Below are positions 3,484 through 43,904 of a stretch of DNA of 64,000 nucleotides, piece after piece (positions within the stretch are counted from its first letter, which is position 1; every line of letters starts with the position of its first letter). Location: contig CM060733.1 of the NCBI GenBank assembly GCA_030704615.1, positions 39,680,001 to 39,744,000 of the forward strand. The letters run 5' to 3'. A program made the position numbers and the translations under genes. This stretch comes from Takakia lepidozioides. Its lineage: Eukaryota > Plantae > Bryophyta. A model generated the notes under the pieces. That model was not told the DNA's origin. It saw only the letters and a list, made by a program, of their open reading frames with translations, and ran no database searches.

Positions 3484-4738
3484 TCACCAGTAATCCCCAC
3501 AAGAACAAACCCCAGCTTCAAAGTGGTGAAACCGATTGGCATCCCGTACAACAATTGTTCGTTCAACAATCTTTGAGATGAACTTGGTGGCCATGTGGCA
3601 GTCACCACACACTCGAAGGTTCTTGATGATACGGAGAGGCGTCCCAGGTGGGGTGCTGATCAGCCCAAAAGCAATGGCCAGCTTCTCACTGTGGTGGCCA
3701 ATAGAAAATTCTTTTTGCTCCTCTTCCACGTTACGCAATACAAAGCATGTGTCAGGCACGTACCCTGCTGCCTTCATCAACCCAAATAATCTCTTCAGCT
3801 CAGCATGGATCTTCTCAATTTTTGGATGCAATTTGTCATCTACAACAAAAGTATGCGCCCAGTCGTCCACCTCAATGCAGGTCTGCCCTGGCTTCCTTCT
3901 GACACCTCTGTGCTGCATCATTTTCCTTACCTGTGCTGTATCATCCCATCTGTCAGCTGCAGCATAGATGTTTGATAGCATCACATAAGTTGGAGCATCC
4001 TGTGGATTACACTTGAGAATATACTTTGCTGCATGTTCTGCTACCTGCACATTGCCATGGATTCTGCAGGCACCAAGCAAGGCCATCCACACCAAAGCGC
4101 CTGGTTTCAATGGCATGCTATTAATGAAGTCTTCTGCCTCGTCCAATTGCCCTGCACGGCCAAGAAGGTCCACCATTCAGCCAAAATGCTCCGTTGTGGG
4201 AGTAAGGCCATAATCTTGACTGATGGAATTAAAGTAGTGATGCCCTTCATCCACTAGGCCCACATGCCTACATGCAGAGAGAACTGATATAAACGTGATA
4301 CTGTCTGGCCTCAAGCCTTCCTGTTGCATGTTTTCAAATAGTTGGAGGGCCTCCCTGCTATACCCATGCTGCCCATATCCTGCAATTAATGCACTCCATG
4401 AGACTACATTTTGTTGAGCCATTTTGCCAAAGACTTGCCGTGCATCCCTCAGGCTCCCTGATTTGGCATACATGTCGACAAGGCTATTTTCGAGAATGGA
4501 ATCCAATGGAATTCCAGCTTCGATGATGGCAGCATGCACCCCTTCTTCTAGAGCTGCAAGGCTTGCACAAGCATTGAGAACACAAATAAATGTTATCTTG
4601 TCTGGCATAACCCCAGTCCACATCATTCGTTCATACATCTCAAAAGCCTCCCTACCATACCCATGCCTTGTATATCTGCAATGATCACGTTCCATGAGAC
4701 AACATTTTGTAGAGCCATATTGTCAAACACTTGACGTG
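3484..4738 (-). pseudogene. 3' half of a PLS-E-DYW PPR gene split by the TIR transposon
   Basis: P/L/S repeats, E domain, HHSEKLAIAFG, LRVCGDCH, CSCGDYW. Stop at 4177-4179 and frameshift near 4680. Joins to 24120-24984 to rebuild DARQVFDNM. Confidence 0.93.
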
Positions 4739-5118
4739 TAGGGAATTCCAAATAGGCCTTGATGTGAAATGCAGCGCAATTCACTTGATCAGATGCCAAT
4801 TCAATTGAACTAACCCTAATTTGCAATTCAAAATTCAATTGAATCGCCACTTGGCAATTCAATTGAATTGCTGACTGCAATTCAATTGAATTGTAATCTA
4901 TAATTTTTAACGCAGTTTTGTATATAATATATATAATATATTATCATGTGTATGTATATGTATATGTATCGTATACACATATACATACGAGAGTATAAGA
5001 TGAATATACATGCTGGCCCGTCTATTCCTGTTGCCCGTCCATCCTTTGCTTGTGGTAAGGCCTAAGTCACGACATGAGTCGCGTACCCTAAAGGAGAGAT
5101 ATATACTAGAGAGAGAGC
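4739..5118 (+). repeat. Left TIR (~380 bp)
   Basis: Reverse complement of 23794-24119 with only a few mismatches, plus ~54 bp of extra CAATTCAATTGAATTG-type subrepeats. Contains a TA-rich microsatellite. Confidence 0.95.
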
Positions 5119-5711
5119 GAGAGCGAGGGAAAGAGAGAGAGAAATGAAGTGATGAAGGGTTTTTAGGGCAGAGGTGCCCTAAAAGTGAAAGGATCAAATC
5201 AGTTGGAGGACGAGAAGTAACGAGAGAAGAATGCAACAACAAGTTTAGGGTTGAGCGGTGGTGGCGCTATGTATGATGGAAGCCTTCTTGGATCACCAAA
5301 TGACAAGATCTGCCCATGAGTAAGCACATTCCCATATTGGCATGAGTTCCCCCAATCATTGATAAAGATATCATTTTAGCTAAAGCTGTAGTTATTGTGT
5401 ACGTGCAGGTGACTCATGAGTTTTGAGGAGAGAACTTTAGGGGTAGTAGAGTGGGTTACCAAACGCTCCTCAACACACACTGAAAGAAAGAGCTTGATCA
5501 CATGGTTTGTCTTCAACCTGCCCACACTGTGTACTGTGGTTTGCTAATACATTTTAGGATACAGTAGTTGTTGTTTCAAAGTACATTTGGTTCATCTACT
5601 TGATAGCCTATGTGAACTTTAGTGACGTAAGTCCTATGGGGAGTGTGTGAGTGGATGCAGTGACTACAGAATTAACAGCAAACAATTACAACAAGGGCAA
5701 GGTCGAAAGCA

Positions 5712-7450
5712 TTGGCACTGGGGCTATTAAGCAGAGATAAGACAGATCATGTGAACATGGAAAACAACCATTTGGATGGTGACAAAGTAGTGGATGATTT
5801 AGTACTTTATGTGGAAGCAATGTTGAATGAGGGTGCCACAATGAAATCAATCGTCACTGCCCTTTCTTTCGATGATGTACGACCACTGAGAAGATTGCTA
5901 TCAGAAGTCCAAGGGTCTCCTTTCAAAGTTCATCATGAATTGAGTGTCCAATGCTTGTGTGAAAAGATTCAAGAGTTACTTCCTATTGAAGAGAATGGGT
6001 CAAATTGGGGAATGAGAACAGTGCAATCTGCCTTAAGGAGGTCAAATTGGCGGATTCCTCGAAGGAAGGTGGGGGAAGCTTTGAAAATCATCTCACCCTA
6101 TCATTATGAGCGTAGGAGAAGGGCACAGGCAATTCGGAGGACTCAGTATAATGTCACAATGCCTATGGCTCTATGGCACATTGACTGTAAGTATTTTATC
6201 TCATGCATCTTAATGTTCTTTGAAGATGCACATGCAAGACGTTTTCTTTGTATTACATATCGCACAAAATTGTAGGCAAACTAAAACATGTATGCAATTC
6301 GTGGTGCAGCTTATGACAAATTGATTATGTTTGGTCTTCGAGTACATGCTGGCATTGATGGGGCCTCTCATTTTGTTTTATGGGCGAACGTTGCAAGAAA
6401 CAAGAAAGAAAAAACCATTTTCAAAGGATATCACGATGCAGTTTCCAAGTTTGGAGCACCTTTACGAATTCGATCTGATTTTGCAGTAGAGCACTCTCTT
6501 ATAAAACAACACATTGAAGCCACACGTTCTGAAACACCCAATCCGTACTTGACTGGGTCTTCTACACACAATCAGGTTAGTGTTCTATACAATTCTATCT
6601 TGCATATCAACTTTACGTTTCTGTCATATTTCTTGGTTCATCTTTATTAATCTTTGAGTGTGTAATGTTGTGCATATTCCTAATACTTTGTGTGGTGTAA
6701 TCACCACGTTAGAGGATTGAACACTTTTGGCGGCATCTATGGGAGAAGGTAATGTTCTACTACAAAAATTGCTTCCAAGCAATGGTCAATGATGGATTAT
6801 TGGATATGGACGATCCGTGGCAACGAGAATCTTTTATTGACGTTTATATGCCTATACTACAAGAAGCTGTTGATGAATACGTGAAGATTTGGAATGGACA
6901 TCGAGTTCGCACGATTAATGAAAACGGTCGATATCGTCGATCATATGTTCATGCTCGTTTCTTTCGCGAGTATGAACGTTTGCATGGGTAAGCTCATGGT
7001 TTTCTCTTGTTTGTACTTTCATTGTTAAGCTACAATTTACATTGGAATGTTATTCTAATATGGTGATGTGTTTGATCATGTAGATGGACCAGCCACCTTA
7101 TTGATGACCCATGATTCAGGGAAGACCCCCGACACATTGGTAACCAAGACTTGGGGCCTCGTGGGAATCAAAGGTGGCGATGTGCAGGTGGTTTGCATGA
7201 CCTTCCTACCAAAGGAGCTGAACTCATTCCTGACATGGTTCGTGTCCGTGCACAAGCTTATGAAATTGGAAAGGTTGGGAAGGATTCGATCTCTTGTTTT
7301 CATCTCCACTACTACATGTCTCGGTATTGTGGTTTGGCAACGCATGAACATAGATATTTTGATCAATTGGACCTCATTGGTAATACCGTGTTAAGTAGGG
7401 AAGCACTCCAACTTTTAATTACACAAGCTCTTGTATGTAATTGTGATTAA
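5712..7450 (+). CDS. Spliced DDE integrase-core transposase (IS3EU-like); 5' end uncertain
   Basis: GT-AG introns at about 6187-6309, 6576-6712 and 6988-7083 join LWHID-SYDKLIMFGLRVHAGIDGAS, RIRSDFAVEH, GSSTHNQ-RIEHFW and WNGHRVR. D, D and E are present. Probable premature TGA near 7112 in the last exon. Confidence 0.85.
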
Positions 7451-8199
7451 CTGAATAAGTGGGACAATCACATTCAAAGATAATTATTTTATGTCACGTA
7501 CTTTGAGGATTTCTGTTAAATAAATGTCATCATCATATCCATTGTCCATATTGAACCATACACCCTAAACATCAAACCATACTACTTGGGGGCAGGGCCT
7601 GGGTTGTACGATCTCTGGAGGGTTGTGAAATTGTTGGGTTTCATTGGGAAGTGCACAGCGTGAGGCTCATGAGGCCGCCTTTTATCTCCAACAATCTTTG
7701 TCTGCCCCACATATGAGACAATGATGACCAACTTGCCTCATTTTCAAGAACCCTCTGTTCATAATCTAAGAATTTTGCATACAGTAATAAAAATCTGAAT
7801 ATACACTCATGGAGACACGAATATTCAACCAGGACTTATAGCTGCACCCTTGTCTCTTATATGCCATGTACCTTGAGTTTAAAATCTGATAACTTGTGTT
7901 CTGTTGATTGGAGTCATGGTTTCTCCAACTGCTGTATACCTTCCATAGCCACCGAGAGGTCTATCTCTCCAGGTTCTGGAACACTCCTGTAGCCTGTACA
8001 ACCACAAAGTAGAATTTTTTGGCTTCCATGTAACATTTATTTTTCTCACATAAGTGGTGAACAACCTTACAGTTGGCATGATGATGATAGGTATGACAGG
8101 TATGATGACGAGGTATCACTTGGCATGATAGGTTAGGAGTCTACTTTCATATGCCCAAGTCAAGTTTCAACCTCTACTGAATGGACGCCCTTTGCGCAG

Positions 8200-9040
8200 G
8201 TGTAGCGGTATAGCGTTTGATTACAACGAAACTTAGTTAGTTTTGGTAAATTAGTCTATATGCAGGTAGAGGTATCGTCATTGGGTACTAGCCCTGTTTG
8301 GTATACTCACAGAGGTACAGCGCTTGATTCCAAAGAAACTTAGTCAAAACTACACCATCTGTAGGTAAGGTTATCGTTATGAGGTAGTTTCCCTGTTTGG
8401 TATACTCACAGAGGTACAGCGCTTGATTCCAAAGAAACTTAGTCAAAACTACACTATATGTAGGTAAGGGTATCGTTATGAGATAGTTTCCCTGTTTGGT
8501 ATACCTACAGAGGTATAGCGTTTGATTTACAAATAAATTTGATGTCAAAAACAGTGTATATTTATGGGCAGATATTGTCATGAGGTAGTAGCCCTGATTA
8601 GTATACCAACAGAGGTATAACACAAGTTGACAAAGAAACTTAGTTATATATACTAGTACTGGTATCGTCATTAGGTTGTAGCCCTGTTTGATATATCTGC
8701 AGAGATATAGTATTTCATTTTACAAGAAAAGTTGGCCAAATTAATCTATATTTTACGGAGGTTTCGTCATGAGACAGTAGCCCTGTTTAGTATACCACCA
8801 GAGGTATAGCGCCTGACTTACAAAGAAACTTGGTCAAATCAGCCTATATGCAGGTTGACGTATCGTTATGAGGTAGTTCCCCTGTTTAGTATACCTACAG
8901 AGGTATAACGCATGATAGCCAAAGAAACTCAAGATAAATCAGGCTGTAGGTATCGTTAAGAGGTAATAGTCATGTTTGGTTTACCTACAGAGATATACTG
9001 TCTGGAAGACAAAGAAACCTAACATAATTCAGTCTATATG
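8200..9040 (+). repeat. Tandem array of ~99-bp units (about 8 copies)
   Basis: GGTATCGTYATGAGGTAG..CCCTGTTTGGTATAC..CAGAGGTA.AGCG..TGA....AAAGAAACTT recurs at 8271, 8370, 8469, 8571, 8661, 8760, 8859, 8949. Confidence 0.92.
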
Positions 9041-9824
9041 CCCCTGGTCGCAGCTGAAAAAATGACTTCCTGCATAGCAAAAGCTCAGACATATCTGCAT
9101 AAGACCATAGGAGTGCCCAAATTAGTGAACACATGTTACCTTACCCACTTTCTTATTGCCAATTGTGTAATGCTGTGGATGTTTCTAAACCTTAAAATGG
9201 CATTGGATAAACCCTAAAACATGTGTGAGATTTCACTAGCTTTCAAGGACAACAACAGGGCATGACCAATTCATCAAAGAAGACAATCTTGAACTGTGAT
9301 ACTTCTCATGGGGTGATATTTATAATGTAATAATGTCTTGAAGCTTTACAAAAATCATACGGCAGGTGGGCCTCTCTCCCACCCTCTCCCCCAAGACTAA
9401 AACATATTAGAGCACTTCATACAGCGCATAAGAATGTCAAACTAGCTAATAAATATTTTATAGTAGAGTACTCCACTTACCATATTAAATATGCAGTATA
9501 ACAGCATTCCATTAATGGGTGCAAGAAGATAAGGGACCGCAGCTATACCTCACTGTCAAAATCCTCATCCATTGATGACGTCTGTGCAAAAGTCACCAAC
9601 AGCTGGAAATGTAACAACCGACAACAAAAATGGATTCCCATCCTTGGGCCACAACCAGATGGCACCTCTCCAACCAGATGGCACTACTCAGCGAACTTGT
9701 AACATTTAACATTCAACCAGATGTCACACTCACAGTACCACTCCAAGAGCATTTCAATTATGTATGATACCACAAAATCAACCCCTCTGTTTGAGCCATG
9801 ACTCACACCCTTCACCTCCACATG

Positions 9825-12800
9825 TCATGCTCGACCATAACTACTATCCATGGTAGAATAGTTAATCTTCGTCATCATCATTGAGGCATCTTTGTATGGG
9901 GGAAGATATAGAACTTGAAAGCAAGTGCTTGCTTGAATGCATGGATAGTCGTGTCGATTGAGAAGTTGTATATTGATGTCTTTGCCGCCAAAGTACTCCA
10001 ATCCAATGATAAAAATAGCCAATCGAGACCTCTCAGCATAGGTCATTTGATCCACACAATCTCGAAACCATTTTTGTTGGAGGGGCAATATAGATACATC
10101 AAATATGCACTTCCTCAAGAAATTACTTGCTTCAATTGCACAGGCACCATTGAATACAACACGCATTGTATCAGGAGATATGCCTTTCAAACTGTCTTTC
10201 ATTCGATCTTTTATGGTGGGTGCACATGGTGCTTGTTCCACAGCCATGTAAAACCCCTCTTGCATTGCCTTCACAATCAAATTGCGTCCATTGAAAAGAT
10301 GACTCCAAACAATGGCTCCAATCTTGTGCTCAACTTCACATTCCCAATTTTCTTCTGTCAGATTGAAATCCGAGAATGTCCAAGCCAAGTCTTCATGTGT
10401 TTCATCCTCTTGGAGTCTTCGAATCAATTTCATTGCCTCATCTCTTGATTTTCTAAGGCAATTTAAGATTGACCATTTTGCGGCCCAGCCCAATCGAAAA
10501 TCACGTTCTAAATCCTTTTTCATTTTGGGCTCCACACCAACGGACATGTTTTTGGACTCGGGGACTTGGTCACAAAACATGACCAAAGTTGCGAATGAAA
10601 AAGGTCTTGAGACTTCCAATTCGTTCGATGCGAGCATGAAGATCAAATGCCCTAGCATTTTGGCCTGCAATATGCACAAACAAATAGTATGAATCAACAA
10701 TGATACCTAACATTCAAACACAAGAAATGACTGTCATGGGAGTATCTTTAAAAATAATTCATGCATGTCAATCTAAAACAAATGACTTTGCAATCCAAAT
10801 CTCACCGCATCCAATTGAATGTCTGCGCGTATGACCTCAGAATCCAATTTTGGATGCAACAACTTTCCTTGAAGATTATCAGGATATTCAAATATGGAAT
10901 TGTAGCTCTGAAAACCAACAACAAAATCATCAGTCTTTGCTAGTACAATTCAAGTTTGTCATAAAATGCAAAAAGCACAAAATACATTCCTAAGTATGCA
11001 AAATGTGCATCAAAGCAAAAGATTACAAATAATCTTAAGACATGAAAAAAGTTTGTGTTTACTGCTTACGAAAGAGGTAGACCAAAATTGCTTCCAAGTA
11101 TTTGTAAGCCATGCATCACGCAAACCATCTTCATCGATAGTCAATCTTTCAGCAATGCCGCTGCAATGAATAAATTCAACCTTTGGTCTATAGCAAGCTC
11201 TTTCATGTTTGATCTCATTCCATTCAAGGTTGAAAGCTTGAAGCTCCTTCGTTTGGGTGACCTTGAAAAACAACACGGAAATTTCAACAACTTCGAAATG
11301 TCTAATTCTAAGTGAAAGCAAGCTTACAAAATTAAATACGATCATGACAGTGCATGAACTCACCGGAATCTTGGTAATAGTGATGTTGGAAAAGCCCAAC
11401 CATCTTTTGTACGGCTTGAAAATAATTTGACTCATATAATACCGTTGGTATTTCAATATGGCTTCATCAACCTTCTCTCTTGATTGCAAAAGTGTCGCCT
11501 CATCTTGGTGAGTCTCAATTTTGTCTGAGCAACACATAAGCTCAAGGTGGGCCCTTGAAAATTTGGTAAAAGCACATAACTTCAATGTCTCATGGATTCT
11601 TTGACTGAAGGTGTGATCTTCATCACCTAGAGAACCTCCATTGATGTTGTAGTGTTGTAGAATCTCTTCTGCTGTTGGGATACATAGACCAACATTCGAG
11701 GACTTTGAGATAGCTAAATCCCATGCATCCCAATCTTTCCAAAAAGGTCGCGCCATGAGCTCAAACTAAATTCGAATATCGCCAGGATTATACATGCTCA
11801 TGGAAGGGTGCATAGTAACCCTACTGAGATTAGCCTCACATGTAGTGGAACCCCTACGAAGCTCTTTTCTTTTAAAAAGCTCGTTACCAATACGTCTCAA
11901 CACTTCATCATTGAAAGAATCTGTATGGAGCTCAACTTTAAACATGTCAAAAGCTGACCAAAAAGCTTGGGATCTCTGTTCATCCTTGTGGACATCGAGT
12001 GCTTCATATGCAGATTTAACATCACGTTCCCCCAATGCCTCGAAGTATGCCTCTTGATGTTTGATCCATGTCTCTGCCATCTTGTTCAGAACTTCATCTT
12101 CAGCTGCCCATGTATAATGAGTGGGTGTTGAGTCCATCTCATTAACAATCATACTAGATGAGGAGGACATACCAACATGCGTTGTTGTGATTGGTGATGC
12201 ACGTAATGCCAGATTATAGTGACCTTGGACATTCCCCCGTTGCACGTTCCTACATCCACCTCGAGGCGGCTCACTCATAAAATCTGAATCAGAATCTCCA
12301 AGGCTGCTAGTCGGAATATTGCCACTTGATTGTTCCATCAATCCAAACGAATACACATCACTGTTTAATCCCGTGATGTGCAGGGTCGTAGAAGGCCTTA
12401 CCCCATTTGAACCTCTGACACGCTTCGGTACTTGTGACGTACTATCAGCTTCAATGTGAGATGTTGTCATACCATAAGGCCTTTCGACCCTTCGAACATC
12501 TTGGGGCACTTGGGTGACATGAACATCTTGAACTTGTGATGGGGCCATATGGAAAGGTTCACCATCGTTTGATGAGGACAGAGATTGAGAATCTTCAATC
12601 TCCATAGGCCTGATCTGTGCACTACCACATCGCCATCCATGGGCATTGGACCTTCTTTCATTGTCAACCTCCCTACACCTTCTATCCCTCTTCTTAGGTG
12701 GATTTCTTAGGAATTGTTGATAAGCAACAATTCCATCACTTGGGACTGTGCTTACATCAGGAACATATGAAACCTCGCTGCTATCAGGGATGTAAACAAC

Positions 12801-13562
12801 AAATGTTGTTGCTGGCAATCGGCCCCATAGAGCCCCACGTTTTCGAATCAATGGCTCGAGATAATATTTGTCTGTTGCTCTCCTGGTCCGTTTGAAAAAA
12901 CACCCTGTCACACGTGGTGTAGGTGTTTGACGATGAGGCTCAAGTTGTGCAAAGTGGGCAGCAATCTGAAACTCCACTGTTCCAAGACAAAATGGCTCAG
13001 GATAGATTTGCCCACCCCACTGAAGGTTTGCTTTGAGAGAGACCAAAACAACTGGGTTGTCTGGAACCCAGTTGCAAATCAATGGCGTTAAAGCCTCACG
13101 ATAGGTTGACCACTCTGTTGACCTTGGAAGCATATGGATGCGCCGTTGAATATCTTTGGGAGGCACATTAGAAGATGCTTGAGGCTGTCTTGTTCGTTGT
13201 GTTCTCGACTCGCAAATGTTTCGAGGAACAGAAACATTCAAGTCATTGACAGTGCCAATTTCAGTAGGTCCACAAAGACTTGGTACATTTGCCATACCTT
13301 GGACGTCGTGACCTTGGCCTTGGGGTGGAGCCGGTACATTTGATCTTGAAGAAGATCCAAATCTGGGTGGATATGCAAAACGCTCACCTTCCTGTCGAAT
13401 ATGCCCTACAAATGCACTTACTCGACGCGGGATTTGTGGCAAGTTTTGTACTAAAGAATCCTCATTGTTTTGTGATGCACAACCAGGGTCAATATCCTGC
13501 AAGTCGTGCGTCCAGTCTTCATCTTGTTTGGACATTTCTATATCGTGCACGCATTTGTGAAC
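9825..13562 (-). CDS. HECT-domain E3 ubiquitin ligase-like cargo gene (spliced; one in-frame stop)
   Basis: C-terminus QASTCFQVLYLPPY..SSYGRA* matches the HECT catalytic Cys loop and the -4 aromatic residue. IDEDGLRDAW resembles the N-lobe G-x-D-x-GG-x-x-RE motif. ORFs 11766-13550 and 11010-11756 are in frame across a single TAG. Confidence 0.75.
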
Positions 13563-13604
13563 CTGCCAAAAAAGTAAGAATTGAGATCCATTGAGATCTG
13601 TTGC

Positions 13605-13890
13605 ATTCCAAAGAAACTAAGTCAAAATTGGACTACATGTAGGTAGAGGTATCGTCATGAGGTAGTTTCCCTGTTTGGTATACCTATAGAGGTATAGCGT
13701 TTGATTTGCAAATAAATTTTGCTAAATCAGTTTGTATTTATGTGGAGGTATTGTCATGAGGTAGTAGCCCTGATTAGTATACCAATAGAGGTATAACGCT
13801 TGATTTACAAAGAAACTTAGCTATATATGCTAGTAGAGGTATCGTCATTATGTAGTAGTGATCCTCTTTGGTATATACCTATAGAGGTTG
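13605..13890 (+). repeat. Second block of the ~99-bp repeat (about 3 units)
   Basis: Same consensus as 8200-9040; lies just 5' of the HECT-gene acceptor at about 13563. Confidence 0.9.
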
Positions 13891-16800
13891 GTGCATTTGT
13901 GAGTTGAGATCCATTAAACAATGGGAATTTTTCACGAATTTTACACGTTGTGAGGAATTGGCAGGGTTTTGTCACCAATGCTCAAGTGTCACACGGTTAC
14001 CAGTCTTCCATTGTGTGCTGGCTTAATTCTTCAGTAACCTACTTGAGCTCTAGACTTCTGAAAAAAACACCCGGATTGGCTTACTTGAGGTATACAATAT
14101 GGCCACTTTAGATATACGCTATACATGTGAGCATAAATGCTTGTCATTTCTCAGAGAGCGCCGGCAGTCTGAATGACGATTCTGTAACTATGATATATAA
14201 GAAACGATAGTGTAGAGAAATTCCCTGGCGGTGGGCTTCAGTTACAAGGAATAAATTGACTAGCATTCTACCTGCATGAGGCACTCCCTCGCCAAGCAAT
14301 GTTTGGGTTTCTTAGACTGGGGGTTACATTGTGACGCACTACTGTGGTCGCAACAAACTTCTGCTTTCTCTTTCCTTCTTTCCTCTCTCGTTGACATAGA
14401 AAATTGAGAGAGGTTATGGTATGGGAGAAGAGAGAGGGGATGCAATTGACATCATGATGAGTTGAAGGGGAGAGCAGAGGGAAGTGGTAAATTCGCAGAG
14501 AAGCACAGAGGTCCCCGGGAGACTTACTTTTGTAGTTGCAGCGTAAAGTGAAAGCCAGGGTGGGTAGTATGGCTGTCGATGAGTTCAGGGCGAGTTATGC
14601 TAGTGAGACACCTTCCCTGAAATGCCTTTGTTGGTGTGTGTGCGCTGTCTTTGTAATTCAACAGATATTGACCAAGAATGTTCACTTGGCTTCACTCGCT
14701 GAAAAGAACACGAGAGAAGTCTCCTTCCTTATACTTCCATCACCAGGAAGTGAGTTGCTGACTTCCTTGGAGTTATTGAGAAACAATGGTATCAAGCCAG
14801 GAAGTGATTTCGATTCAATTTTGGCTGCTGTCATTATGGCGCGATGTCCTAAACTTCTAGCGCGTGTTCCGTTTGTTCACTTTCAATAATGGGCTTCATG
14901 GTGGTTATCTTTTTAGGTTCTTAACAGGCTTATTAGCATATTAATGGGCTTTTAATAATGGGCTCCATTCTCCTTCTAACATCTTCAAAATAACCACAAT
15001 AACGGTAATTTGGGTAGTTAAGTTGTCCCTAACACCCATCCAAAATTATTTTATGTATTTCCATCTATTTCCACCCTTTTTATTTTGCCAACTTAACCTT
15101 AGGTGAGATTTCAACCCACAATGAAGATTTGTGTTTGTTGGTCTTGCATCGAGGAGATATCTGCACCTTGAGACACTAACCAATTTCATACTGCCAAGCC
15201 CTTATAGTGCCAATATATGGCTATGTACATATACCAAACATGATACCACTGTAAGAGTATCAACGTCTAAGAGTTGATATATTAAACTCTCTATCGAACA
15301 CACAGCCCAATTTCAACATGATACCTTTGCAAGGGTATCGAAACAAGATTATTGGAGATAATTCTCGAAATGAACATGTCTTTTGTTTTCTCTGGGGTTG
15401 TGTCATGGGGGCCAGATACTAGTGCCAGGGGAGTACATGATGATGTAGGGGAAGCCATTCATCAATTGTGAGGTTTGAAATTGTTTGTTTCTTTCAGAGG
15501 TAGCCATATTTCTTTTGCCACTGAATCAGAGGAAGCTGAAGCACTTCTGAGTAAGCCATCTGTCTCCTTGAGGGTCCCCCAAAAAATGAGATGGAGCTAG
15601 CCCTGGCATGCACATCAAACCCATTTAGCTCACAAGCAGTTTAAGGAGGTTTGCATAAACATTTGGCCAAGGTTTGAGGGCTTTGCCTCATTCCAACAAC
15701 AGTATTTACCAAAGCACATAACGTGCTTGTAATAACACTCGGGCTGCATGTGGGGTTCATGGGATGCTGAATGGAAGTTGAGGAATTTGAAAGGCTGGAG
15801 TGGGAATCGAGAGCATGAATGCTGAGTTCTACAATAGTGATGAGATTATGGTTGTAGTGCAACGTTGTAGTAGGTTTGTTATTGGCAGCCCAACACTTGC
15901 AAGCCACATGCCCACTCCTATGAAGGTGTGACTGGTGATGTAGTGACCAGTCACTTAGTCAAACCAGCGATACGCAGGCAGTGGGTAGAGTGGTGGATGA
16001 GCAGCACATGGAGAGAGGTGTGCACATGGAAGATCAATGTGAAGTCCATATCAGCCCCTATGCCAAGTTATATTGCTTCCCCTTGTGCTCAATACCTCTA
16101 CATTCTTTTGTACTGGAACCGCAGATTGATTGAAAAGCACATGGACAACGGTCTGCACAGGAAGATCACTACCAAGTCCATATTAGCCCATACGCAAGTG
16201 ACCACTTGTAGCAGACCTCTAACCTGCTTCATGACTGGTGATTCCGTTGTTCCTCAGATGTGGGAATCATGCAGAACATAATTCATCAACTAAGTTCTTT
16301 AAATCTTCCTCTTTGTTGCGGGATACTCAGATTGCAAACAACACGAACAAAATGAAAACACGGGGCTATGAAAAGAAGGAAGCAGATCGGATGGTCGTCC
16401 AGGACCATATTCAAATTCCAAAAGTTGCAAGAAATGGAAAACAACAAAATGCAGGTCAACTTCTCATGTATCCAGGCATTGCCGTGGACTCACTCACTCA
16501 ACCACTGAGATTTAAATTAACTTAAGTCTGCAATATGACTGGTTACTCAAAATTTGGTTCTCGGTGTGAGTAAAATTGATTAAATTGATGCCCCTAAACC
16601 GAAACTCCAGGTCAAATAGATATAAGAGCTGGTTGAAGGCACTGTGTACTGGAGAAAAACCAACCACATAGTCACAAAGGTCTAGATCGGCCACATCCTG
16701 AAGCATCGACTGCCTGTTTCGCAGCTGTTGAATGGCTTCTAGTGGGTTTGGCACAATCACGTCTGGATACTTCTGCTTAAAATCCTACAAATGCACAAGC

Positions 16801-17223
16801 ACCAGATCAGCAACATGGCCAAAGAGTAAGTGAATTGGACTCCCAATGTACCCATTTACATGCTTAATCCTAAAGCAGTCACTGTATCCACAGCCTCAAA
16901 ATATGTACATAGCCTCGGCCTACAACTTTTATGTTGTATGCACCCATTTAGCAAAGGTTCCTGGGAGCTATACTTGAGGCTAGGAAAACCACCCGGCGCC
17001 TACACAACCTGCAAACCACATTCCTCTTGGTAGGACAATAGCGACATAGCCTCCCTACAATGGAGTAGTGTAGTCCGTATCTTTGTACCATTATTTGGGC
17101 ACTTTTCTTAGGCAACTAGAATGTGAAAAAGAGAGTAAGAAGAAACACACAAACAAGTCTCAGAATTTTCTCCATACTTACAAGGTGAAGGTAGCCAAAA
17201 AAGAGGCCCTGATTCGATTTTTT

Positions 17224-18953
17224 CTACATTCCTTCCTCTTCATCATCATCATGCTCCTCCTCCTCCTCCTCCTCATCTGCATCGTCGTCATCTGTTTCTT
17301 CCTCCTCTCCCTCATCTCCTCCATCATTGTTTGTCCCTTCCTCATCCTCCGTGTTTGCATTGTCGTCATTGTCTAGTTGCTTGTCTACACAACATGGAAA
17401 CAAAGTACACATCTTAGAGTCCAATTGGCATGTTGAATAGAAACATAGCATGAAATATTTGACAAGTGAACATTCACACTTTTCACTTTTCTTGTAGCGC
17501 TTGGTCGCTAAAGCACACGCTTTGGCACAAAGGGGATCCACGAATCTCCACTTCTCCATCTCTGCATTGACGTACGTCTTGACAAACTCTGCCTTTGTCA
17601 ATGTGAACACCAACGATCTACAAAATATTTAGTCACAAGGGTTAGTTTGAAATCGCACTGATTGGTGAACATATGTACGATACAAACAAGAAGTATGCAA
17701 AGGCAGAATAATACCTTTGTTTGCAGCTTTCTTCCTCATGGTAGGTTAGCAAGCTGTTGGCCACCTCTTTTCGCAACTTGCGACGAGGCATCTTCCAGTA
17801 ATCCTTGCCATCCCTATAGATTCTTTTCATCCGTGCCAAGTCTTGCTTGTAACCCCTAATCGGTTTGTACTGAGCAAGTTTGTTCCTCACCCACTTACCA
17901 GTCGCATTCGCACCCACGATATCATCCAAGGTCTTAGCTGATAAATCGCCCCTTCCCCATTTGGGAATCCCGAAGTGGTCGTACACATCTTCATCGAACA
18001 ATGTTGCCAACAATGGTGCTCGCTTGCTCTTGTTTTCCATGGCCATAGAACCACCTTGTGCCATTTCCCACAGTCGCTCCGCTTTCAATTTGGTTCTGTA
18101 ACGCGCCTTGTTCTCATACACCCTCTTTCTCTTATCTGCATCCCCATAGATCTTCATGTTCGTTCTATGGTAATTTTGTTTTCTCTTCTTCCCATCCGTA
18201 GGGCGACCAGGCTTACCTGGAAGGAGGCGAGGACCTCCACACTTTACCACAAGGTGGTTTTGGAAGTTATGTTTGTCCTTCCAACCCATGGAAGGTCCTT
18301 CACCGCAAATCAAACAAAACCAATGTCCATTCTCCCGTTTGTAGTGCACCCCCTCTTGTGCAAACGAACCACCTAAATAACATAGATAGTGGATGTGTGA
18401 AATTAGGCATACCAGGGTTTTAGAATCGGAGATTCACCTACATGATGATACCTTTGTAAAGATATTTGTCTCTAGGCATCTATTATACTTCCGTGTTTAG
18501 CACTACACCTATCCTGCACATAATGCACATACCTCTGTACAGAAAAGACACCTTTTAATACCTCTGTGGAAGTAAAGACGTTGCATACAATCCAAGCAAT
18601 AAAAGAATGAAAATGTACTTGAAACTAGGAATCCCGTAGGAGTCCCAAGAGTTGTAAATAAGCATGAACTTACTTCCTTGCCCTCCTAGCACTCCTTGCC
18701 CTCCTCCTGTACGCGCCGGCTCTGTCGAGGTAACAGGAGTTGGTACGACGTCACTGTTTGCTACAACAGACACAACGCAAGATGAAGGGGCTTCATGACG
18801 TCTTGACTTCACTTTGATACGCTTCCCTGTTATGTTGGATCTTCCCATGTTTAGATACCTTCCTGTCTCCTGGAAAAAACAATGTTGTTTGAAAAGCTCG
18901 GTGCTCCGAGCTCGTAGCACTGGACTCCTATTCCTATCTTCACAAAAAGACAA
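17224..18953 (-). CDS. Second cargo gene: Zn-finger-like motif, basic core and Asp/Glu-rich tail; exon structure uncertain
   Basis: ORF 17642-18349 has WFCLICGE..FQNHLVVKC. ORF 17224-17613 ends in a long D/E tract. Plausible GT-AG junctions between the ORFs. Confidence 0.5.
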
Positions 18954-19512
18954 TGTTGTTATAGGGCAGAGAACACACCCTGAAGTTGTCTACTGCTGCC
19001 TGCAAGCTCTTGAGATGTGGCTCTATTTTTAGCAGATTGGCCAGCAACCTAATATTGCGGAGACAATAAACACTCAACAGTCACACTGACCATCAACCTA
19101 AACTTAATTCCAAGCATTACAGACCAGCCATGACACAAACACTAACCCCTTCACTCCAATTGTTCTTCATGTGTTTTGCTCACAGACTAGTTTACCAGTT
19201 AGGGCCTTCTTGCTCACATCTTCAAAGAATACAAGCACTGCAAACACATGTTGCTGGCTAGCAAGGTTCAAGTCACACCCTTCCAATGGAAATGACAGCA
19301 GAAACAAAATGAAGCCAACCAACTCCCTAAACTCATTTCCTAACATTGTTAACCATGCTGAGCACCACATCTGAAATAAGCATGTCTCAGATTGATTTAG
19401 ATATGTACCTTGTCACGAGTGGTGCATGTAGCTTCCCTGTACCCACAGTAAACCCTGACTATTGTTACAACTTGCACAAAAGCTTGTCAAGTAACTTTCA
19501 CACCTACTCTTA

Positions 19513-22500
19513 TCCTTGAGGTCATCCAAGATGTCCTCCCCCATGTCACAGACTGGAAACAAGTTCAGGGAAGTTTTCTGCCTAACTTCCTTTTCATCAG
19601 AAAATCTCATGGCAACAGACATGGCTGAGGACACTAGAGCCTCTAAGTCAGACTTACCCAGCAGGGTCAAGCCTTGCGGATACAGGTCCAGGTCCTTGAG
19701 GATGTCTTGTACTCTCTTCTGCCAGGACTTAGCCTGTTTGACAGGGCGGTCCTGTTTCCAAGATATAGAGTCCATTAATTTAGGATATCTGGTGTTGGGC
19801 ATATGTTGCAGCTGACCCCACCATCTGACCTTGAATTCATGTCGTCGGGAGCTGAAGGACGGAATGCCGAACTCACCCCGAACAGCCACATTGGCTGTTT
19901 TGGAGCATGCTGACATACACTCCTTAACCACCCCCACTTGAATGGATTCTAGAGACTTAGCCTGGTTGGAGTTATCAACCCATATAGCAGATCCGTACTC
20001 CAAGGCAGGTCTAATAACGCGACAAAGCATGGTTTTCTTAACCTTAGAGTTGACCCCTCTGCAGTGGAAAAATTTAGTGAGCCCCAGTGCTTTGCCCTTG
20101 CCAGTTTGAACAACTTTCTGGATATGTGCATCCCAATTACAATTGGAGGAGAACTCAACGCCCAGGTAAGTGTAGGAAGGGAGGACCGGGATCTCTTGGC
20201 TACCCCACTGCCACTTAAGATCACTTCCTCCCTCTCCTATGTCGTTGAATGCTACCACTGCACATTTGCTGACATTAGCCTCTAGCCCCCAAAGATCAAA
20301 GTATGTCTTCGCGCAATCAATACACTCCTGGAGATTGGTTGGAGTCTCCCCTATGCCTGCGAAGTCATCCGCAAACATAAGGGCTGGTATGGTGGTATCA
20401 CCCACCCTTAACCCAAATCCCTCACTTTCCACATCCTCGAGGAGTTGATTGATGAAAACATTGAAGAGCAGAGGGGAGAGAGTACATCCTTGAGCTACAC
20501 CTTGGTCTAAGTCAAAGAAGTTGGACTTCTGTCCGTTAACAGTGACACAGCTTTTGGTGTGAGCATACAAGTTGTGGACAAGTCTCCACATCTTTCCCTT
20601 GATCCCACAAGACCAGAGGCGGAACCATAGGCCATCTCTCCACACTGTGTCATAAGCCTTTTTGACATCCAGGAAAAATACATAAGTGGGTTTCCCTCCT
20701 TTTTCCTTCCCTGGATAATCTGGCTTAGAGTGAAGATATGATCCACACAGCCCCTATTTCGCCGAAAGCCAGCTTGGCCTTCGTGGAAACAACCTCTAGA
20801 CTCCAGATCAACCTCGAGACGAGTACTTATAAATAAGCAGAATGTCTTGCCAACAACATTGAGGAGCGTGATGCCACGGTAGTTCCCCGGTTCTTCTCTG
20901 TCACCCTTCTTGTATAGATTGACAATGACCCCCTGTCGCCAGCGAAAGGGGATCATTTCAGTCTTCCAGAGAAGGTTAAAGAGGAGAAGTAGGGCCTCTA
21001 TCATGGGATCGCCACCGTGCTTCATAAGCTTATGACAATACCATCTGGTCCAGGAGCTTTACCTCCATTTATATGTTCAATTGCTTCGACAATCTCAGAA
21101 GAAGTAATGGGAGCATTATAAGCCATTGAAATATACTCCAGTTCATCAGGGCTGTTTTGAATCATAGGAACAGTTTTTCCAACTGTGTCCCTCCATTCAG
21201 CAGAAGACCCCTCACTGTTATACCTAAGAAGTTCTGCCAAGGATACTGTAGTGAGTTTCAAAGGTTTTGACAATGTCAACCGATGAAGTCACCACTGCAC
21301 CTTTAGTAGTCTTCAGCGCTTGTACTTGCTGACCGTTTTTCGGTTTGTACAAACGTTGAAGGGCCAAGCAGAATTTCTTGTCATTACCACCATGGTGGTT
21401 TGAGTTTATTTCACTGTATAACTTGTCCCAATATAATTTTTTCTGAGACCTAACAAGCTGATTGATATCTTTACGGAGCTGGTAGTACCTCGCCCACAAT
21501 TCTCTGTTGGTTTCCAAATTGCAGTACTGTTTATAGAGGGCTCGTCTCTCAGCTATGTTGAGTTTAATCTCATTAGTCCACCAATTAACAGCTCTACCGC
21601 AGACAATTAGTTTCCTCCCAATGATCTTGTCAGCCACGGAGGAAACAAAACTCTCCCAAGAGTCCACTGCTCTTTCGACTTCATTTATTGCGTTAACAGA
21701 GCGTGACTGAAGTTCTTGGAGCGATTGGACAAAATGAGGGAGAGCCTCTTGCAAGGCCTGGACGTACTCAGCCTTGACCTCCTCATTGTGGAATTTTTCT
21801 ATGCGCCACTTCCGAATCGAACGTTTCACAGATCTCTTGGTGGTGGGAAAACACCTTTTGATGTCAGTCCAAACCAGCAAGTGGTCAGAGGTACCAATAT
21901 CAGTTTTGTCGATCAACACATCGGCACACTGGGGGAACAAAAATTTGTCCATTATGATATAGTCCACAATGGAACGTTCCCCAGTTTGGGGTTTCTCACG
22001 AGTCCACTGCACTTGGTCACCTCTTGTCCTGTTATTCAAGGTGAAAAGCTGAAGCTCTTCTAGACAGTTAATTAACCGTCTGCCATTAGAATTCAGCTCG
22101 TCCTCACCAAAAGGTCCAATGATATCGTCCTGATGGATCCGTTTGCCCACCCAGGCATTGAAGTCCCCCAATGGTACCACCTGACCTTTGGCAAGGAACG
22201 AAGCACAGTCCAGCTTAAAAACTTGTGAGGCCTTGTCTGCGTCAGCACACAGGGTCCCCTCTGTGGCCATGTAAACACAACGGACAAAGAGGTCCAGCAG
22301 AGTACTCATGCCGCCCTTCAAATTCAGTTTTAGCCAGATACTATGCTCGTACCTCAAACCCTTGTTGATAATTTCACAATTGTCAAACAAGAAATCACGA
22401 ACGAACTTCTTTGAGATTGAATTGATGCGGGACTCTATTAGAAGCACTTTTGGTCATTGCAACCTTCAACGTACCCCTGTTATCAAGTCTCGAGATGGTA

Positions 22501-22990
22501 CCATAAACCCTAAATCCAAGCCTAAGGTAGAGCATGTAGTTTTAAAGGACACATCGTCCATCCTGGGATTCACCCCAAAAACTACACATGAAGCCCTAGA
22601 TTTGGCATAAGTAACCAATTCCCAGGGATCACCCTGAGGAGTGTTGATGTTGATAGGAGCTATATTTTTGATTGTTTTCGCAAGCCATAAGTTTAAGCAC
22701 AGGAACCAACCCGAGCCCAAGTGCCGAGTATGCTAGACAGAGCATACGACTGCCCAATTTGGGCGGAGGAGCTGCCCCCAAGCGGTAGGAGTCCGCTTGT
22801 TACCATTCAGAGATCACACTCTAGGGAGTTGCAGGGAATGGCCCGTGTAGGCATATTCTAAAGAGGGAAAGGCCCCAAGCTTTCCAACTAAATCCAATGC
22901 ACTACCTTACCTGAAGCAAAACGCTTAAGGTCGAAACAAACAAGGACACGAGGTCAGAAGGCCGGCATTTAGTGACAGAGACATTAATGT
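19513..22990 (-). mobile_element. LINE (APE endonuclease + RT), frameshifted and 3'-truncated, nested in the TIR element
   Basis: APE motifs LGDFNA, SIVDYII, SDHLLV (21224-22447). RT motifs PGPDGI, QGCTLSPLLF, FADD, YTYLGV (19413-21279). Homology to the 1086-2820 copy ends at about 19513; 5' limit approximate. Confidence 0.92.
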
Positions 22991-23038
22991 ACTCCCGTTT
23001 CAAGTCCACCCAATGTCAATAGGCTTCCTAGAGGACAG

Positions 23039-23044
23039 GAGAGA

Positions 23045-23125
<81 letters not shown>
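23039..23125. repeat. (GA)n microsatellite
   Basis: Near-perfect GA run of about 85 bp at the 5' side of the nested LINE. Confidence 0.97.
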
Positions 23126-23128
<3 letters not shown>

Positions 23129-23544
23129 GAAATGAAATAGGGTTTGGTTGTTTGTTTCTCCCTTGGCACCTAATGTGATATTAGTTGTCCTCCGCATACA
23201 TATCCAGCACACCAGAAAGAGAAGAAAGCTCTTTGAACTTACTTGAAGCATCTTGTATTTCCGAGGGTGCAACATCATTCATACTCAGGATGGACACGGT
23301 TGCCTTACCAAATGTGTCAGCTCTGCTGCTGCCTCTTCCTTGGCCTCTTCCTGTCCACCCAACCATGACACGTACCATGAAAAACTCACTTGACATTTCT
23401 ATCCCACTCTTCTTATTGAGTAAACCAGAAACAATAGACAATCATGTAGCCAAGTGCTACGCGATGAACAGCTGTAGAATCTAACAAGCGAGGACTAGGA
23501 TAAAAACAGAGATAAGAATGCGTACGTTGCCAATCCCAATCCCT

Positions 23545-23790
23545 CTGTAGGTATACTAAACAGGGCAACTACCTCATAACGATACCTCAACCTGCATATA
23601 GGCTGATTTGACCAGGTTTCTTTGTAAGTCATGCGCTATACCTCTGGTGGTATACTAAACAGGGCTACTGTCTCATGACGATACCTCCGCATAAATATAG
23701 ATTAATTTGGCCAACTTTTCTTGTAAAATGAAATACTATACCTCTATAGATATATCAAACAGGGCTACAACCTAATGACGATACCTCTAC
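23545..23790 (-). repeat. Third, inverted block of the ~99-bp repeat abutting the right TIR
   Basis: Near-identical reverse complement of about 8660-8900. Confidence 0.9.
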
Positions 23791-23793
23791 TAG

Positions 23794-24119
23794 GCTCTCT
23801 CTCTAGTATATATCTCTCCTTTAGGGTACACGACTCATGTCGTGACTTAGGCCTTACCACAAGCAAAGGATGGACGGGCAGCAGGAATAGACGGGCCAGC
23901 ATGTATATTTATCTTATACTCTCGTATATATATGTGTATACGATACATATACATATACATACACATGATAATATATTATATATATTATATACAAAACTGC
24001 GTTAAAAATTATAGATTACAATTCAATTGAATTGCAAATTAGGGTTAGTTCAATTGAATTGGCATCTGATCAAGTGAATTGCGCTGCATTTCACATCAAG
24101 GCCTATTTGGAATTCCCTA
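23794..24119 (-). repeat. Right TIR (~326 bp)
   Basis: Mirror of 4739-5118; the ORF track shows the same peptides on opposite strands (4907-5242 vs 23775-24005). Confidence 0.95.
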
Positions 24120-24984
24120 GACGTGCATCCTTTATTTTCCCACATTTGGCATACATGTCAACTAGGGTAATCTCCAGAATAATATCTGGTACAATTCCAG
24201 CATTGATGATGTTATTGTGGACCTCTTTGCCCTTTTCGAAGGCTCCAAGGCTGGCACACGCCTTGAGAACACAAATGAAAGTCACAGTGTCGGCCATCAC
24301 CCCTTCCCACATCATTTGCTTATACATCTCAAAAGCCTTCCAACCACTCCCTTGCTGAGCATATCCTGTGATCATTGCACTCCATGCGACCACATCTCGT
24401 TGTGCCATGTTGTCAAACACCTCACATGCATCCTTCATGCTCCCACACTTGGCATACATGTTAACAAGTGCAGTCTCCAAAATGACATCTGGTTCAATTC
24501 CAGCTTTGATAATATCGGCATAGACCTCTTGGCCCTTTTCCAGGGCTAGGGCTCCTAGGCCGGCATACGCCTTGAGTATGCAAGTGGCTGTGACCCTATT
24601 AGGTGTCACCCCTTCCAGTACCATTTGCTCATACATCTCAAAGGCCTCCCTATTACACTTTTGGATAATGTGGGAGTGCACCTGCCCCACCTCTGCTAGG
24701 CCTTTCACCTCAATGCACTCTTGCAAGAGCAAGCCGTAAGTGTTCAAATCCACCAGAATGTCTCCTTGGTTCAAAATGTGCAATGCATCTTGCAATCGTC
24801 CATGACATAGAGTCCTCAAATACTCACAAGTGCCAAAAGAGTTCTTGTTGAGTCCCTCTATAGGTCTTCTGTCACAAGTAGTGGCCATAGTGGAGGTGCC
24901 TGATTGATACAACTCTGCCATCCTGCATGAACCCAAACTTTTAGTTAGGTATTCAGACTTGATATTCATAGATTTGAAAGTCAT
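24120..24984 (-). pseudogene. 5' half of the split PLS-DYW PPR gene
   Basis: PPR motifs LETALVNMYAKCGS, VVAWSAMITGYAQ, TVTFICVLKAC. The frame reads ..KIKDAR and then runs into the TIR. Confidence 0.92.
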
Positions 24985-25369
24985 ATATACTCAACAAAGA
25001 CCTCTTCACGAGGACCAGCTCCTCCATAAATAGGGATTTTCTTTAGGTTTCATTCCCACATCAGAGTGCAGAGGTGCAGACTTGCAACAAATAGACCAAC
25101 TTGGACACCAGCTGCAGTTCCATATCTGTATAGACTACCAAGAACCATTTCGGCCAACTCTGTTCACCTCAGCACCAATAAATCGAAGGACAAATGATGT
25201 TCAGCAGGTATGCATCTATTAAAGAGAAGGGACAGTTATACCGGAAGAACCCTGATAATCCCCCTCCACCAGTGCTCGCTGCAGATTTTTGCCTAGCTGC
25301 TTCCAATTTCTCCAATCGACCAGATAAGCACACAGGTCTCTCGCGGCCGTCAATGCACAGTACCTTGTC

Positions 25370-26470: not shown

Positions 26471-28663
26471 TACCTAGGCTGAAATGGCTGAAAGAACCTC
26501 CCTAACCTCTCTTTTCTTTGACCTGTGACAGGCATGACATCCATAGTGAGTGTGAAGGTGTTTAACCAGCAACAAAAGAATGTGAAATAGCCTCACCTGG
26601 CTACATCACAGCCAACCAACAAACCAACAGATTAATGATCTCCATGCTACTAAGTGCAAGAGACTAAGGGAAGCATTTTGAGCTCTTTTGGGCCTTGGAT
26701 GACTAAGGGCCACATTATGCACACCACAAACGATCGCCCAAAATGTGGTGGTGGTGTTCACTGGACTAATTTGCTCCTTTGGCTGGTGGGTACTTTTAAG
26801 CTCTGTATGTGTTGCTTGTACATACACCACCACTGTGAAATATGGTGGAATGAGCATGTAGTAACACAGAACGGAGTTGCCTTTGCATTCTGTGACCTGC
26901 CTATGGTGTGTGCATCATCTGACTGCCACTTAGAACACCCTACGCCTCATTTTGCAGTGAGGATATGACAAGGCATGGACACAACACATTGTGTTTTGTG
27001 TTTCCTTATCTAAAATTCACATGCTATGGGCGTATGTCTCTCGCTCTGTGGACATCGTAAAGTTCCCCGTCTTTCTGTTCCTTACTCTATGTGCCCTTTC
27101 TCAAAGCGCCATGTGATCAGCCACATGTGGATTGGGGGCTAGAGACAGCAGTACCGGAAGCAACATGTGTCTCTAGTTTATGATTTTCCAGCCTTCACCT
27201 CAATCCACGTAAGAAGATTACAAGGGCTGTGAAACGTCTGTGGGGTCCAGAGACCTACAGCGTAAAGTTTGCATACGCTGCTGGATGGAAATTTTTATAA
27301 GTGGCTCCAGAAGACAGATATCCCGCAGGGATGGAGTGAATGGTCAGTATCTCTCCAAACCCTTATCAATTCCTCAGTTCGAAAGGTAATTGTAGCTCTG
27401 ACCTGCTTCAGAGAGACCAAAGCAATGTATATCGCGACTGTGGTAACTATTTGACTAGGTTAAGGGGCGAGCTCATACTGCTTCCATCTCACCACTTGGA
27501 CGTGCAGCAGGATTCTGTGGGATGTGTGCAGGGGTGTCATGATTGCCATACTAACAGAAAACCCGATGAAAACAGGGTATCCTAGTGACTATGGCCGCAA
27601 GTACCTCACGCAGCACCATGGAAAGATGAGAAATTTCATGGAATAGAGAAGGAGCTCAGAGACGGAGGCCAAGAGTGTAGGAAGGGTGTCCCTTACACTC
27701 ACTCTGCTGCCCCTGAACGATACTAAATTGGGTTTAGTTTCTGCGGGATGAGTCAAGGCCCGCAGGGAACCCGGGTCGCCCACAGGCACACAGTGTAGGG
27801 ATCCAAAACAACTGCATATCCGTACCTTTCATCGGTTTCTCTGCAGACCAGGGGAACATCATGGCCTTCACGTGCGACGTTCTGGGGCCCCGCATTGCCA
27901 AGCAAGCATGCCAATTTCAGCTCCACAACCTGGTCCTTCTATTGCCGCATGACGAGAGCCCTTCCTCAGGAGAGCTCCCCTGAACGCCATGTGCCAGTGA
28001 GAGATCTGGAGTCTGTGTTGTGAACCACCACTTTTCTGAACTCTAGCACTTCTGTTTCATATAGCCTTGCCCTATGTTACCAGAGTTGTGTTGTTCTCGT
28101 GGTGTCAATAGCTCCCGGGCCTGTTCCTATATCAGTGTGTTGATCTTCCTTGTTAGCAGGTCATAAAAGCACGTTGTTCAATTCTGTTCTCTGTCAGCTT
28201 TAATTGGAAAAGACTTTGTACTTTGGTTCTCGCCTGATCTTTGCTGTGGCTGAAGCTATGGTGGCTTGGTTCTCCCTCCTGATTTCCCAGAAAAGTCCAA
28301 GATTTTCAGACTTAAGTCATAAAAGGACCAAGGAGATGCTTTGGATTGAGCAATGGTTGAACCCTCCTTGGGTGACAGTGGGACTAGCTGCCATGATACA
28401 AGGTCGATCTCAATCTGATGATGACTCTTATGTTGATGTACATCGTGGAGCTCCAGGCCGAGAACGCAATGGGTTATTGTCTCACTGATTTAAGGGTTTG
28501 TACTCAAATAGAGGGATTTGATACATTTAACTCTCACAGTAGCTGACTGCAGTAGTTTGGCAACCCTGATAATATGTAGCGAGCCTGTCCTCATGAAGTA
28601 GTATTTGCTTGTAGTATGTAGGAGTTTCAAGTATATCATGTGAGTTTGACTTTATAATGCAGG

Positions 28664-43361: not shown

Positions 43362-43904
43362 TCTGCTCTCACAACTACCAACTCTTCACCGCATTTTGCC
43401 TACACCCACACCCACACGATGGTCCTGTAAAACACTACTGTAACACATTGCTTCCCAATGGACCTCATTGGAAACTATCCCGAGGCAGAACTATTGTGGG
43501 TTCAACTCTTCTATACAACAAAGTTAGATCCGTATTGGCCTGCCTTCCTAAGGTAAGATTACGCAGGAGGCGCGAGGAATTTTTCATGAAACCATTCAAT
43601 GTTTGACAGATATGAGTAGATAAATGGATAGAATGAGTGGATTTGTTGCATGCCTGACAAGTAAGCAAGAGACAGATTGCTTTTGGTGGCGATAACGCAT
43701 TGGCAGCGTGTCACTGTTGCAAAATCTCGCACAGAGTGACTGGATTTGCATGCAAAACGTGTTTGCGACGAGCTAAGTAGTGTACAGAGAGCCGGCTCAC
43801 ATTATTGCACGATGCCTTTGTTGAACAAGAACTAGAAGGGAGGAGGAGCTGAGTGCCTGACATAGGTTCCTTGGCTTGTGCAAGCAAACTGCGGGGCTTG
43901 GAGG

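Follow-up and report, generated by a model that had tools for sequence, protein, structure and literature searches.

Does a ubiquitin ligase gene that lies inside a plant transposon belong to the element, or was it picked up from the host by chance? This question is raised by a 64,000-nucleotide stretch of the Takakia lepidozioides genome (assembly GCA_030704615.1, contig CM060733.1, positions 39,680,001 to 39,744,000), here called the window, which contains a complete IS3EU/GingerRoot element of ~19.4 kb at 4739-24119. The element, delimited by self-comparison and by alignment of its ends, carries a transposase, a HECT ubiquitin ligase and a third gene, together with three 99-bp arrays and a nested long interspersed nuclear element (LINE). 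An earlier note on the window, made from the sequence alone, had taken the ligase to be encoded by the element rather than captured at random. We consider it likely that the ligase is an accessory gene kept by the element.

The element and its HECT ligase gene

The ends of the element are of the TA..TA type (TAGGG...CCCTA), and its terminal inverted repeats (TIRs) match at 322 of 326 aligned bases (99%). An identical 6-bp target site duplication (TSD), GACGTG, was found on both flanks. Removal of the element in silico gave a continuous PPR motif at the empty site, which demonstrates that the element is inserted into a DYW-PPR gene; this host gene bears further lesions besides the insertion. 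The transposase model comprises 445 codons from the ATG chosen, its start being not certain. It matched PF24764 above the cut-off in two exons and has the DDE triad D143, D200 and E235 (DD34E). One contig of sequencing run X7, whose RNA nature is a guess, joins 6186 to 6310, which is exactly the predicted first transposase intron. The transposase and the ligase gene are arranged tail-to-tail, as the earlier note had described, with their stop codons 2.4 kb apart and a 99-bp array between them (Table 1).

The ligase gene (13562-9825, minus strand) had been read as a single open frame. The span holds, but a splice-signal model places three GT-AG introns in it, which leaves four exons and 1110 codons, and codon 599 is a stop. 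The four-exon model is supported by the database protein P0008, which aligns without a break over model residues 764-933 (exons 2-4; 55%). The stop was also considered as a splice site; this was ruled out, since the alignment to a Selaginella relative runs through it and the codon is sense in sister contigs. Of the long disordered N-terminus proposed for the ligase, the mostly polar character of residues 1-450 was borne out by composition, a proxy only, whereas a hydrophobic stretch near residues 150-250 and the region from 572 onward, which aligns to the Selaginella relative, do not fit it. A Pfam scan of exon 1 gave no match, and a fold of 13202-12765 from the single sequence was uninformative (predicted local distance difference test score, pLDDT, of 37).

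The HECT domain and catalytic Cys named in the earlier note were both recovered. PF00632 matched 9828-10706 on the minus strand with an E value of 7.9e-9 and a score of 36 bits, the cut-off being 23.9. Exon 4 was modelled with AlphaFold from a 32-row alignment, exons 2-3 being outside the model; the model reached a pLDDT of 85, and every Foldseek match shown for it was a HECT ligase. Using VIA-align, the C-lobe was superposed on that of HUWE1 (6fyh) over 102 residues with Z 15.1 and a root-mean-square deviation (rmsd) of 1.8 A. The C-lobe rmsd to HECT structures was 1.6-2.3 A, the model aligned to many HECTs on both lobes over ~230 residues with Z 14-15, and the identity to solved HECTs was 13-22%. 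HECT clusters of the ESM Atlas were matched at 0.94-0.95. A profile of the ligase family matched WWP2 (E 3e-11) with the catalytic Cys columns aligned, and the corresponding Cys1079 stands 31 residues before the C-terminus. The residue fourth from the C-terminus is aromatic, in line with the rule for HECT ligases. Among the relatives scanned, PF00632 scored above the cut-off in nine of ten; the Selaginella relative was below it at 21.4 bits. Collectively, these results indicate that exon 4 encodes most of a diverged HECT domain with a predicted bilobed fold. A ubiquitin identity, raised by weak phmmer matches (E 0.04; P0045), was rejected because the stretch concerned falls within the HECT fold.

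Ligase relatives, sister copies and HECT genes in other elements

A phmmer search over 1.84 billion representatives returned 53 at E<=0.001, which were 25-59% identical and mostly exon-sized pieces, one of them a spurious polyubiquitin match; a profile search for the ligase family listed 21. The catalytic Cys was found in 65 of the 66 relatives that cover its position (128 proteins were fetched, many being close kin of each other), and Cys and fold were retained down to ~20-25% identity. Many of the relatives appear truncated or frameshifted. Searches for longer relatives found none, which is weak evidence, and no match was obtained with a narrower family alignment against metagenomes or with exon 4 against viral contigs. 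Of 20 clusters that were looked up, only one had an informative name, SELMODRAFT_407700 (P0041) of Selaginella moellendorffii; this protein aligns over the stop to residues 572-1086 of the model (23%, E 3e-16). It resembles the Takakia ligase in having an acidic/polar N-terminus ahead of the HECT domain, and differs from it in being a protein of 747 aa annotated as a hypothetical HECT-domain protein.

The HECT domains of the host ubiquitin-protein ligase (UPL) subfamilies are described as very similar, and their N-terminal domains as typical except in subfamily IV (PMC3712016). The close similarity expected within UPL subfamilies seems to be missing in the window ligase, given its distant representatives and its low identity to solved HECTs. 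No ARM, IQ, UBA or ubiquitin N-terminal domain, of the kind present in plant UPL subfamilies I-III, V and VI, was matched by Pfam in the exon 1/2 pieces. Near-identity to a host UPL was seen for none of the database proteins searched, the matches being mostly unnamed. The ligase belongs to a rare, deeply diverged family and, since a recent UPL capture would be expected to match far more proteins, and more strongly, appears unlike a recently captured host UPL.

Sister copies were read from public contigs of sequencing runs, of which X1 and X4 represent one sample, perhaps that from which the window itself derives, and are not independent, and X5 comes from a second study at low depth. Contigs of X1 and X4, ~99% identical, tile 9780-12300 at a depth of 250-500, compared with 33-62 for contigs of diverged copies. 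This suggests several near-identical ligase copies, with depth read loosely and not as a copy number. Over the same region, the sister contigs had no frameshift and only one in-frame 9-base insertion. Codon 599 was a sense codon in the sole covering contig of each run (X1, depth 317; X4, 449; X5, 2.4, near the contig end), X5 thus agreeing with X1/X4. The transposase of the window copy has a nonsense codon at codon 334 (7112), and this codon was sense in contigs of X1 and X5. Since sister contigs have sense codons at both sites, the two stops are private to the window copy or are assembly errors. The window copy is a recent insertion, now mutated, and its sequence implies that it cannot make the full ligase.

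Within 40 of the 44 rows of differences, the window and the X1/X4 contigs differed by 10 synonymous, 14 non-synonymous and 7 intronic changes; the remaining 9 rows were X5 or minor variants (5 synonymous and 4 not, one of these a stop). The rough ratio of non-synonymous to synonymous rates (dN/dS) among copies was 0.36-0.5, which points weakly to constraint (P 0.014-0.077, depending on transition bias). No RNA dataset was listed as containing the ligase, and two runs guessed to be RNA gave no real cover of it; these results are no evidence either way on its expression. CHG sites were depleted in all three element genes (ratio 0.45-0.71, with 0-1 of 300 recodings as low), compared with 1.05-1.25 in five host or LINE frames (host PPR, TspO, LINE) and 0.81 in the interrupted PPR half. 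This shared depletion fits a long joint residence of the element genes; as the LINE frames are without it, it does not mark transposons in general.

Metagenome contigs scanned with the transposase motif alone gave 25 loci, 7 of them with a transposase, and Pfam was run on 62 of the 89 frames of at least 95 aa from these seven. A HECT gene was present in all five transposase loci that have more than 1.5 kb downstream, which represent only two independent families; the contigs of L010 and L024 stop at or just past the transposase. PF00632 was above the cut-off in L008 and L012, and L007 has a frameshifted HECT gene of the L002/L012/L023 family. In L008, the HECT gene is convergent with the transposase, as in the window element, at a distance of 758 bp. 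A hidden Markov model (HMM) of the ligase family, run over 3671 frames, had no match in the 18 chance loci (those without transposase; family HMM only), and the transposase motif scan of viral contigs returned no loci. When a tree was built from 21 C-lobes, all of element-type HECTs, the two animal-type rows formed long branches without placement.

Some further features of these loci were recorded. L012:7497-19102 is a complete 11.6-kb IS3EU element with TATGG ends, a 6-bp TSD and its HECT gene within the TIRs and on the transposase strand, and L002, L007, L023 and L024 are sister copies of it. A Death-NACHT-LRR gene adjoins the element at L002:15761-20022, pointing to an animal as the host of that family. 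A search with the transposase exon gave a single match of 13 residues, L001, which was not useful.

Possible roles of the ligase and the features around it

The proposal that the ligase is element-encoded rather than a random capture is supported, because the whole gene lies inside the TIRs and TSD, near-identical sister copies occur at high depth, the diverged family keeps its Cys, the composition is shared with the other element genes, and HECT genes occur in other IS3EU families. HECT ligases transfer ubiquitin from an E2 to the catalytic Cys and then to a substrate. By this chemistry, a ligase made from intact sister copies would be charged with ubiquitin at its Cys by a host E2. Its long N-terminal part may select the substrate, and selection probably keeps the ligase for the benefit of the element. 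Host silencing factors and the transposase had both been put forward in the earlier note as possible targets. The explanation that we prefer, with somewhat less than even confidence, is that this kept ligase acts on the transposase or the strand-transfer complex, perhaps for turnover or for clearance so that the 6-bp gaps get repaired. The transposase is favoured as the target because it is the sole partner common to the distant hosts that have the pairing, and because rust-fungal IS3EU elements keep an alpha-kinase gene opposite to the transposase (PMC12730594).

Several observations weigh against this explanation. The window copy is broken in the ligase as well as in the transposase. The dN/dS signal comes from 24 changes and loses significance under strong transition bias. 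Transposase contigs of X1 are ~3x deeper than its ligase contigs (~780-1110 vs 250-335) and, if depth reflects copies, many sisters may be without this ligase. PF00632 was just under the cut-off in L002 and L023, two of the four Pfam HECT matches in the other loci, and the four copies of the L012 family have the HECT gene on the transposase strand, which means that the gene arrangement is not fixed. Plant-type and animal-type element HECTs are 14% identical, with an hhalign probability of 33%; the two types may have separate origins, and the argument from a common partner may fail.

A kept ligase might alternatively act against host silencing, which we regard as possible but less likely. The third protein would bind the 99-bp arrays, where the ligase would attach ubiquitin to histones or silencing factors, as a ubiquitin-based counterpart of VANDAL/VANC. 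The three arrays are adjacent to the genes and to the right TIR, and all 11 occurrences of one 99-bp unit motif are inside the element. The third gene is intact and is covered over 17715-18321 by a contig of X7 (taken as RNA by guess), and the element genes are CHG-poor. The targets of VANC also form tandem repeats (PMC5735166), and the TET/JBP genes of fungal IS3EU elements have been proposed to provide an escape from methylation (PMC12730594). However, the third gene had no Pfam match, its ESM Atlas matches were all below 0.9, and no relative of it was found in the fetched IS3EU loci; its DNA-binding role is only putative, and the arrays may be ordinary slippage products. A broader proposal, which we hold to be doubtful, is that IS3EU/GingerRoot elements of plants, animals and fungi alike operate ubiquitin ligases of their own, and that the plant family couples one to a sequence-specific protein and repeat arrays as a ubiquitin-based anti-silencing or transposition-control module. 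If true, this would be a transposon that writes ubiquitin.

It is improbable, in our judgement, that the gene is an old capture of a host HECT gene that is carried along with scant or no advantage to the element, or that is kept in some lineages for the benefit of the host. Points in favour of this are that GingerRoots take up fragments of host genes as DNA, with their introns (PMC6839031), that truncation or a frameshift is apparent in many relatives, that transposase contigs are deeper than ligase contigs, and that the Selaginella relative carries the annotation of an ordinary gene. Yet the captures reported in that paper measure 84-1654 bp and are 79-98% identical to the parent, whereas here a whole gene of 3.7 kb has 53 distant representatives; the retention of Cys and fold over such distances needs long selection, and independent IS3EU families hold HECT genes too. 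The ligase could also sit in a second element nested within the GingerRoot, with arrays A and B as its bounds and an accidental pairing with the transposase. The direct 99-bp arrays that flank the ligase gene and the drop in depth after the transposase would agree with this, but the array abutting the right TIR is 95% identical, which places the arrays in the outer element, no second TIR pair was found around the ligase gene in the window self-comparison, and the composition signature of the ligase is common to the transposase. We give the nested arrangement very little weight compared with a ligase kept by the GingerRoot itself.

The introns, the stops, the intact third gene, the 99-bp arrays and the nested LINE had escaped the earlier note. 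The arrays, confined to the element, are candidate binding sites. The LINE family is present in two copies that are ~90% identical, at 1070-2812 and at 19413-22453, the latter nested in the element; a TSD was sought for the nested LINE and none was found. At 14937-15930, the contig depth is far above that of the rest of the element, and this segment, in which no open reading frame or RNA family was found, is probably another nested high-copy repeat. The window has three DYW-type or related PPR genes (3484-24990 and 28658-31120, broken; 46859-49201, intact, 780 aa) and a TspO/MBR family gene in a single open frame at 43866-44777 on the plus strand. The PPR genes suggest a host plant rich in editing factors and, together with the Selaginella relative and the range published for GingerRoot, a host that is probably seed-free. 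A near-perfect 20-bp palindrome (~40 copies) underlies a 53-bp minisatellite and its dispersed copies at 55157-63100, where the long frames have no Pfam match. Rfam gave no matches over the window.

Table 1. Features of the element and its insertion site, in window positions
Feature	Position	Strand	Basis or remark
3' half of interrupted host DYW-PPR gene	3484..4738	-	PPR, E and DYW domains (Pfam)
Left 6-bp TSD, GACGTG	4733..4738	.	Identical to 24120-24125
Left TIR, starts TAGGG	4739..5118	+	322/326 bases matched to right TIR; 54 bp longer than right TIR via one internal indel
IS3EU/GingerRoot transposase	5757..7450	+	PF24764 rva_4; exons 5757-6186, 6310-6575, 6713-6987, 7084-7450
99-bp tandem array A, between transposase and ligase	8200..9040	+	Tandem Repeats Finder (TRF), period 99, 6.9 copies; self-BLAST
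Ligase exon 4, most of HECT N-lobe and whole C-lobe	9825..10664	-	PF00632, predicted fold
Catalytic Cys codon, residue 1079 of 1110	9921..9923	-	Family profile alignment to WWP2 catalytic Cys
Ligase exon 3	10806..10907	-	GT-AG borders, P0008 alignment
Ligase exon 2, likely start of HECT N-lobe	11070..11261	-	GT-AG borders, P0008 alignment
Ligase exon 1, 733 codons	11364..13562	-	Polar N-terminal part and region common to Selaginella relative; predicted start as in the earlier note
Ligase nonsense codon 599	11766..11768	-	Seen in window copy only; sister contigs read sense
99-bp array B, upstream of ligase gene	13605..13890	+	Self-comparison
Third gene, four exons, intact, 325 codons	17224..18479	-	Model; CxxC/H zinc-finger-like start, basic middle, acidic tail
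Nested LINE, reverse transcriptase and endonuclease frames, ends approximate	19413..23125	-	RVT_1, Exo_endo_phos_2 (Pfam)
99-bp array C, abuts right TIR	23531..23793	-	TRF; 95% identical to 8653-8906 inverted
Right TIR, ends CCCTA, 326 bp	23794..24119	-	Alignment with left TIR
Right 6-bp TSD	24120..24125	.	Identical to left TSD
5' half of interrupted host PPR gene	24126..24990	-	PPR domains (Pfam); 288 open codons

Comparison with known systems

The superfamily and the enzyme class are both known; a plant transposon that keeps a HECT ligase was not found in print, and no report of a HECT ligase paired with IS3EU was found in the literature searched, with Repbase and most subscription journals outside the search. 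IS3EU/GingerRoot elements are described as having TA..TA termini, TIRs, a 6-bp TSD and an integrase-like DDE transposase (PMC10045372; PMC6839031), and the window element has all of these. Between its transposase and the GingerRoot DDE of Selaginella lepidophylla, ~55 of 115 residues match, counted by eye. The element differs from described GingerRoots in its TIRs (326 bp vs 100-150 bp) and in its length (19.4 kb, or ~15.7 kb without the LINE, vs 3.9-12.9 kb). The GingerRoot cargo reported in these sources consists of host gene fragments only, in contrast to the whole ligase gene and third gene found here. Rust-fungal IS3EU elements likewise carry several genes, one of which encodes a protein-modifying enzyme and lies opposite the transposase (PMC12730594), but that enzyme is a kinase and is accompanied by TET/JBP, whereas the window element has a HECT ligase and no TET/JBP. 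The words 'HECT' and 'ubiquitin' are absent from the text of PMC12730594.

Like plant UPLs of subfamilies I-VI, the window ligase has a C-terminal HECT domain with a catalytic Cys (PMC3712016). It differs from them in its weak Pfam score, in an N-lobe that is not recognised by sequence, and in being multi-copy and element-borne. Subfamily IV, which is described as short, poorly resolved and absent from angiosperms, is a possible remote source. The ligase appears to represent a diverged HECT family of plant type that lies beyond the six UPL subfamilies catalogued so far, and it may help to interpret unusual 'HECT-domain hypothetical' genes annotated in seed-free plants. With sister copies that lack the stop, its substrate can be sought by experiment. 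Among plant DNA transposons, KAONASHI/Ulp1 Mutator-like elements (MULEs) and VANDAL/VANC likewise keep an enzyme domain of a ubiquitin-like pathway (PMC13317346; PMC5735166), and VANC resembles the role suggested for the third gene in being a protein that acts on tandem repeats of its element (PMC5735166). Those elements are MULEs with a SUMO-protease domain (PMC13317346), whereas the window element is an IS3EU with a conjugating enzyme. Retention of SUMO-protease domains and of anti-silencing proteins is already established for plant transposons.

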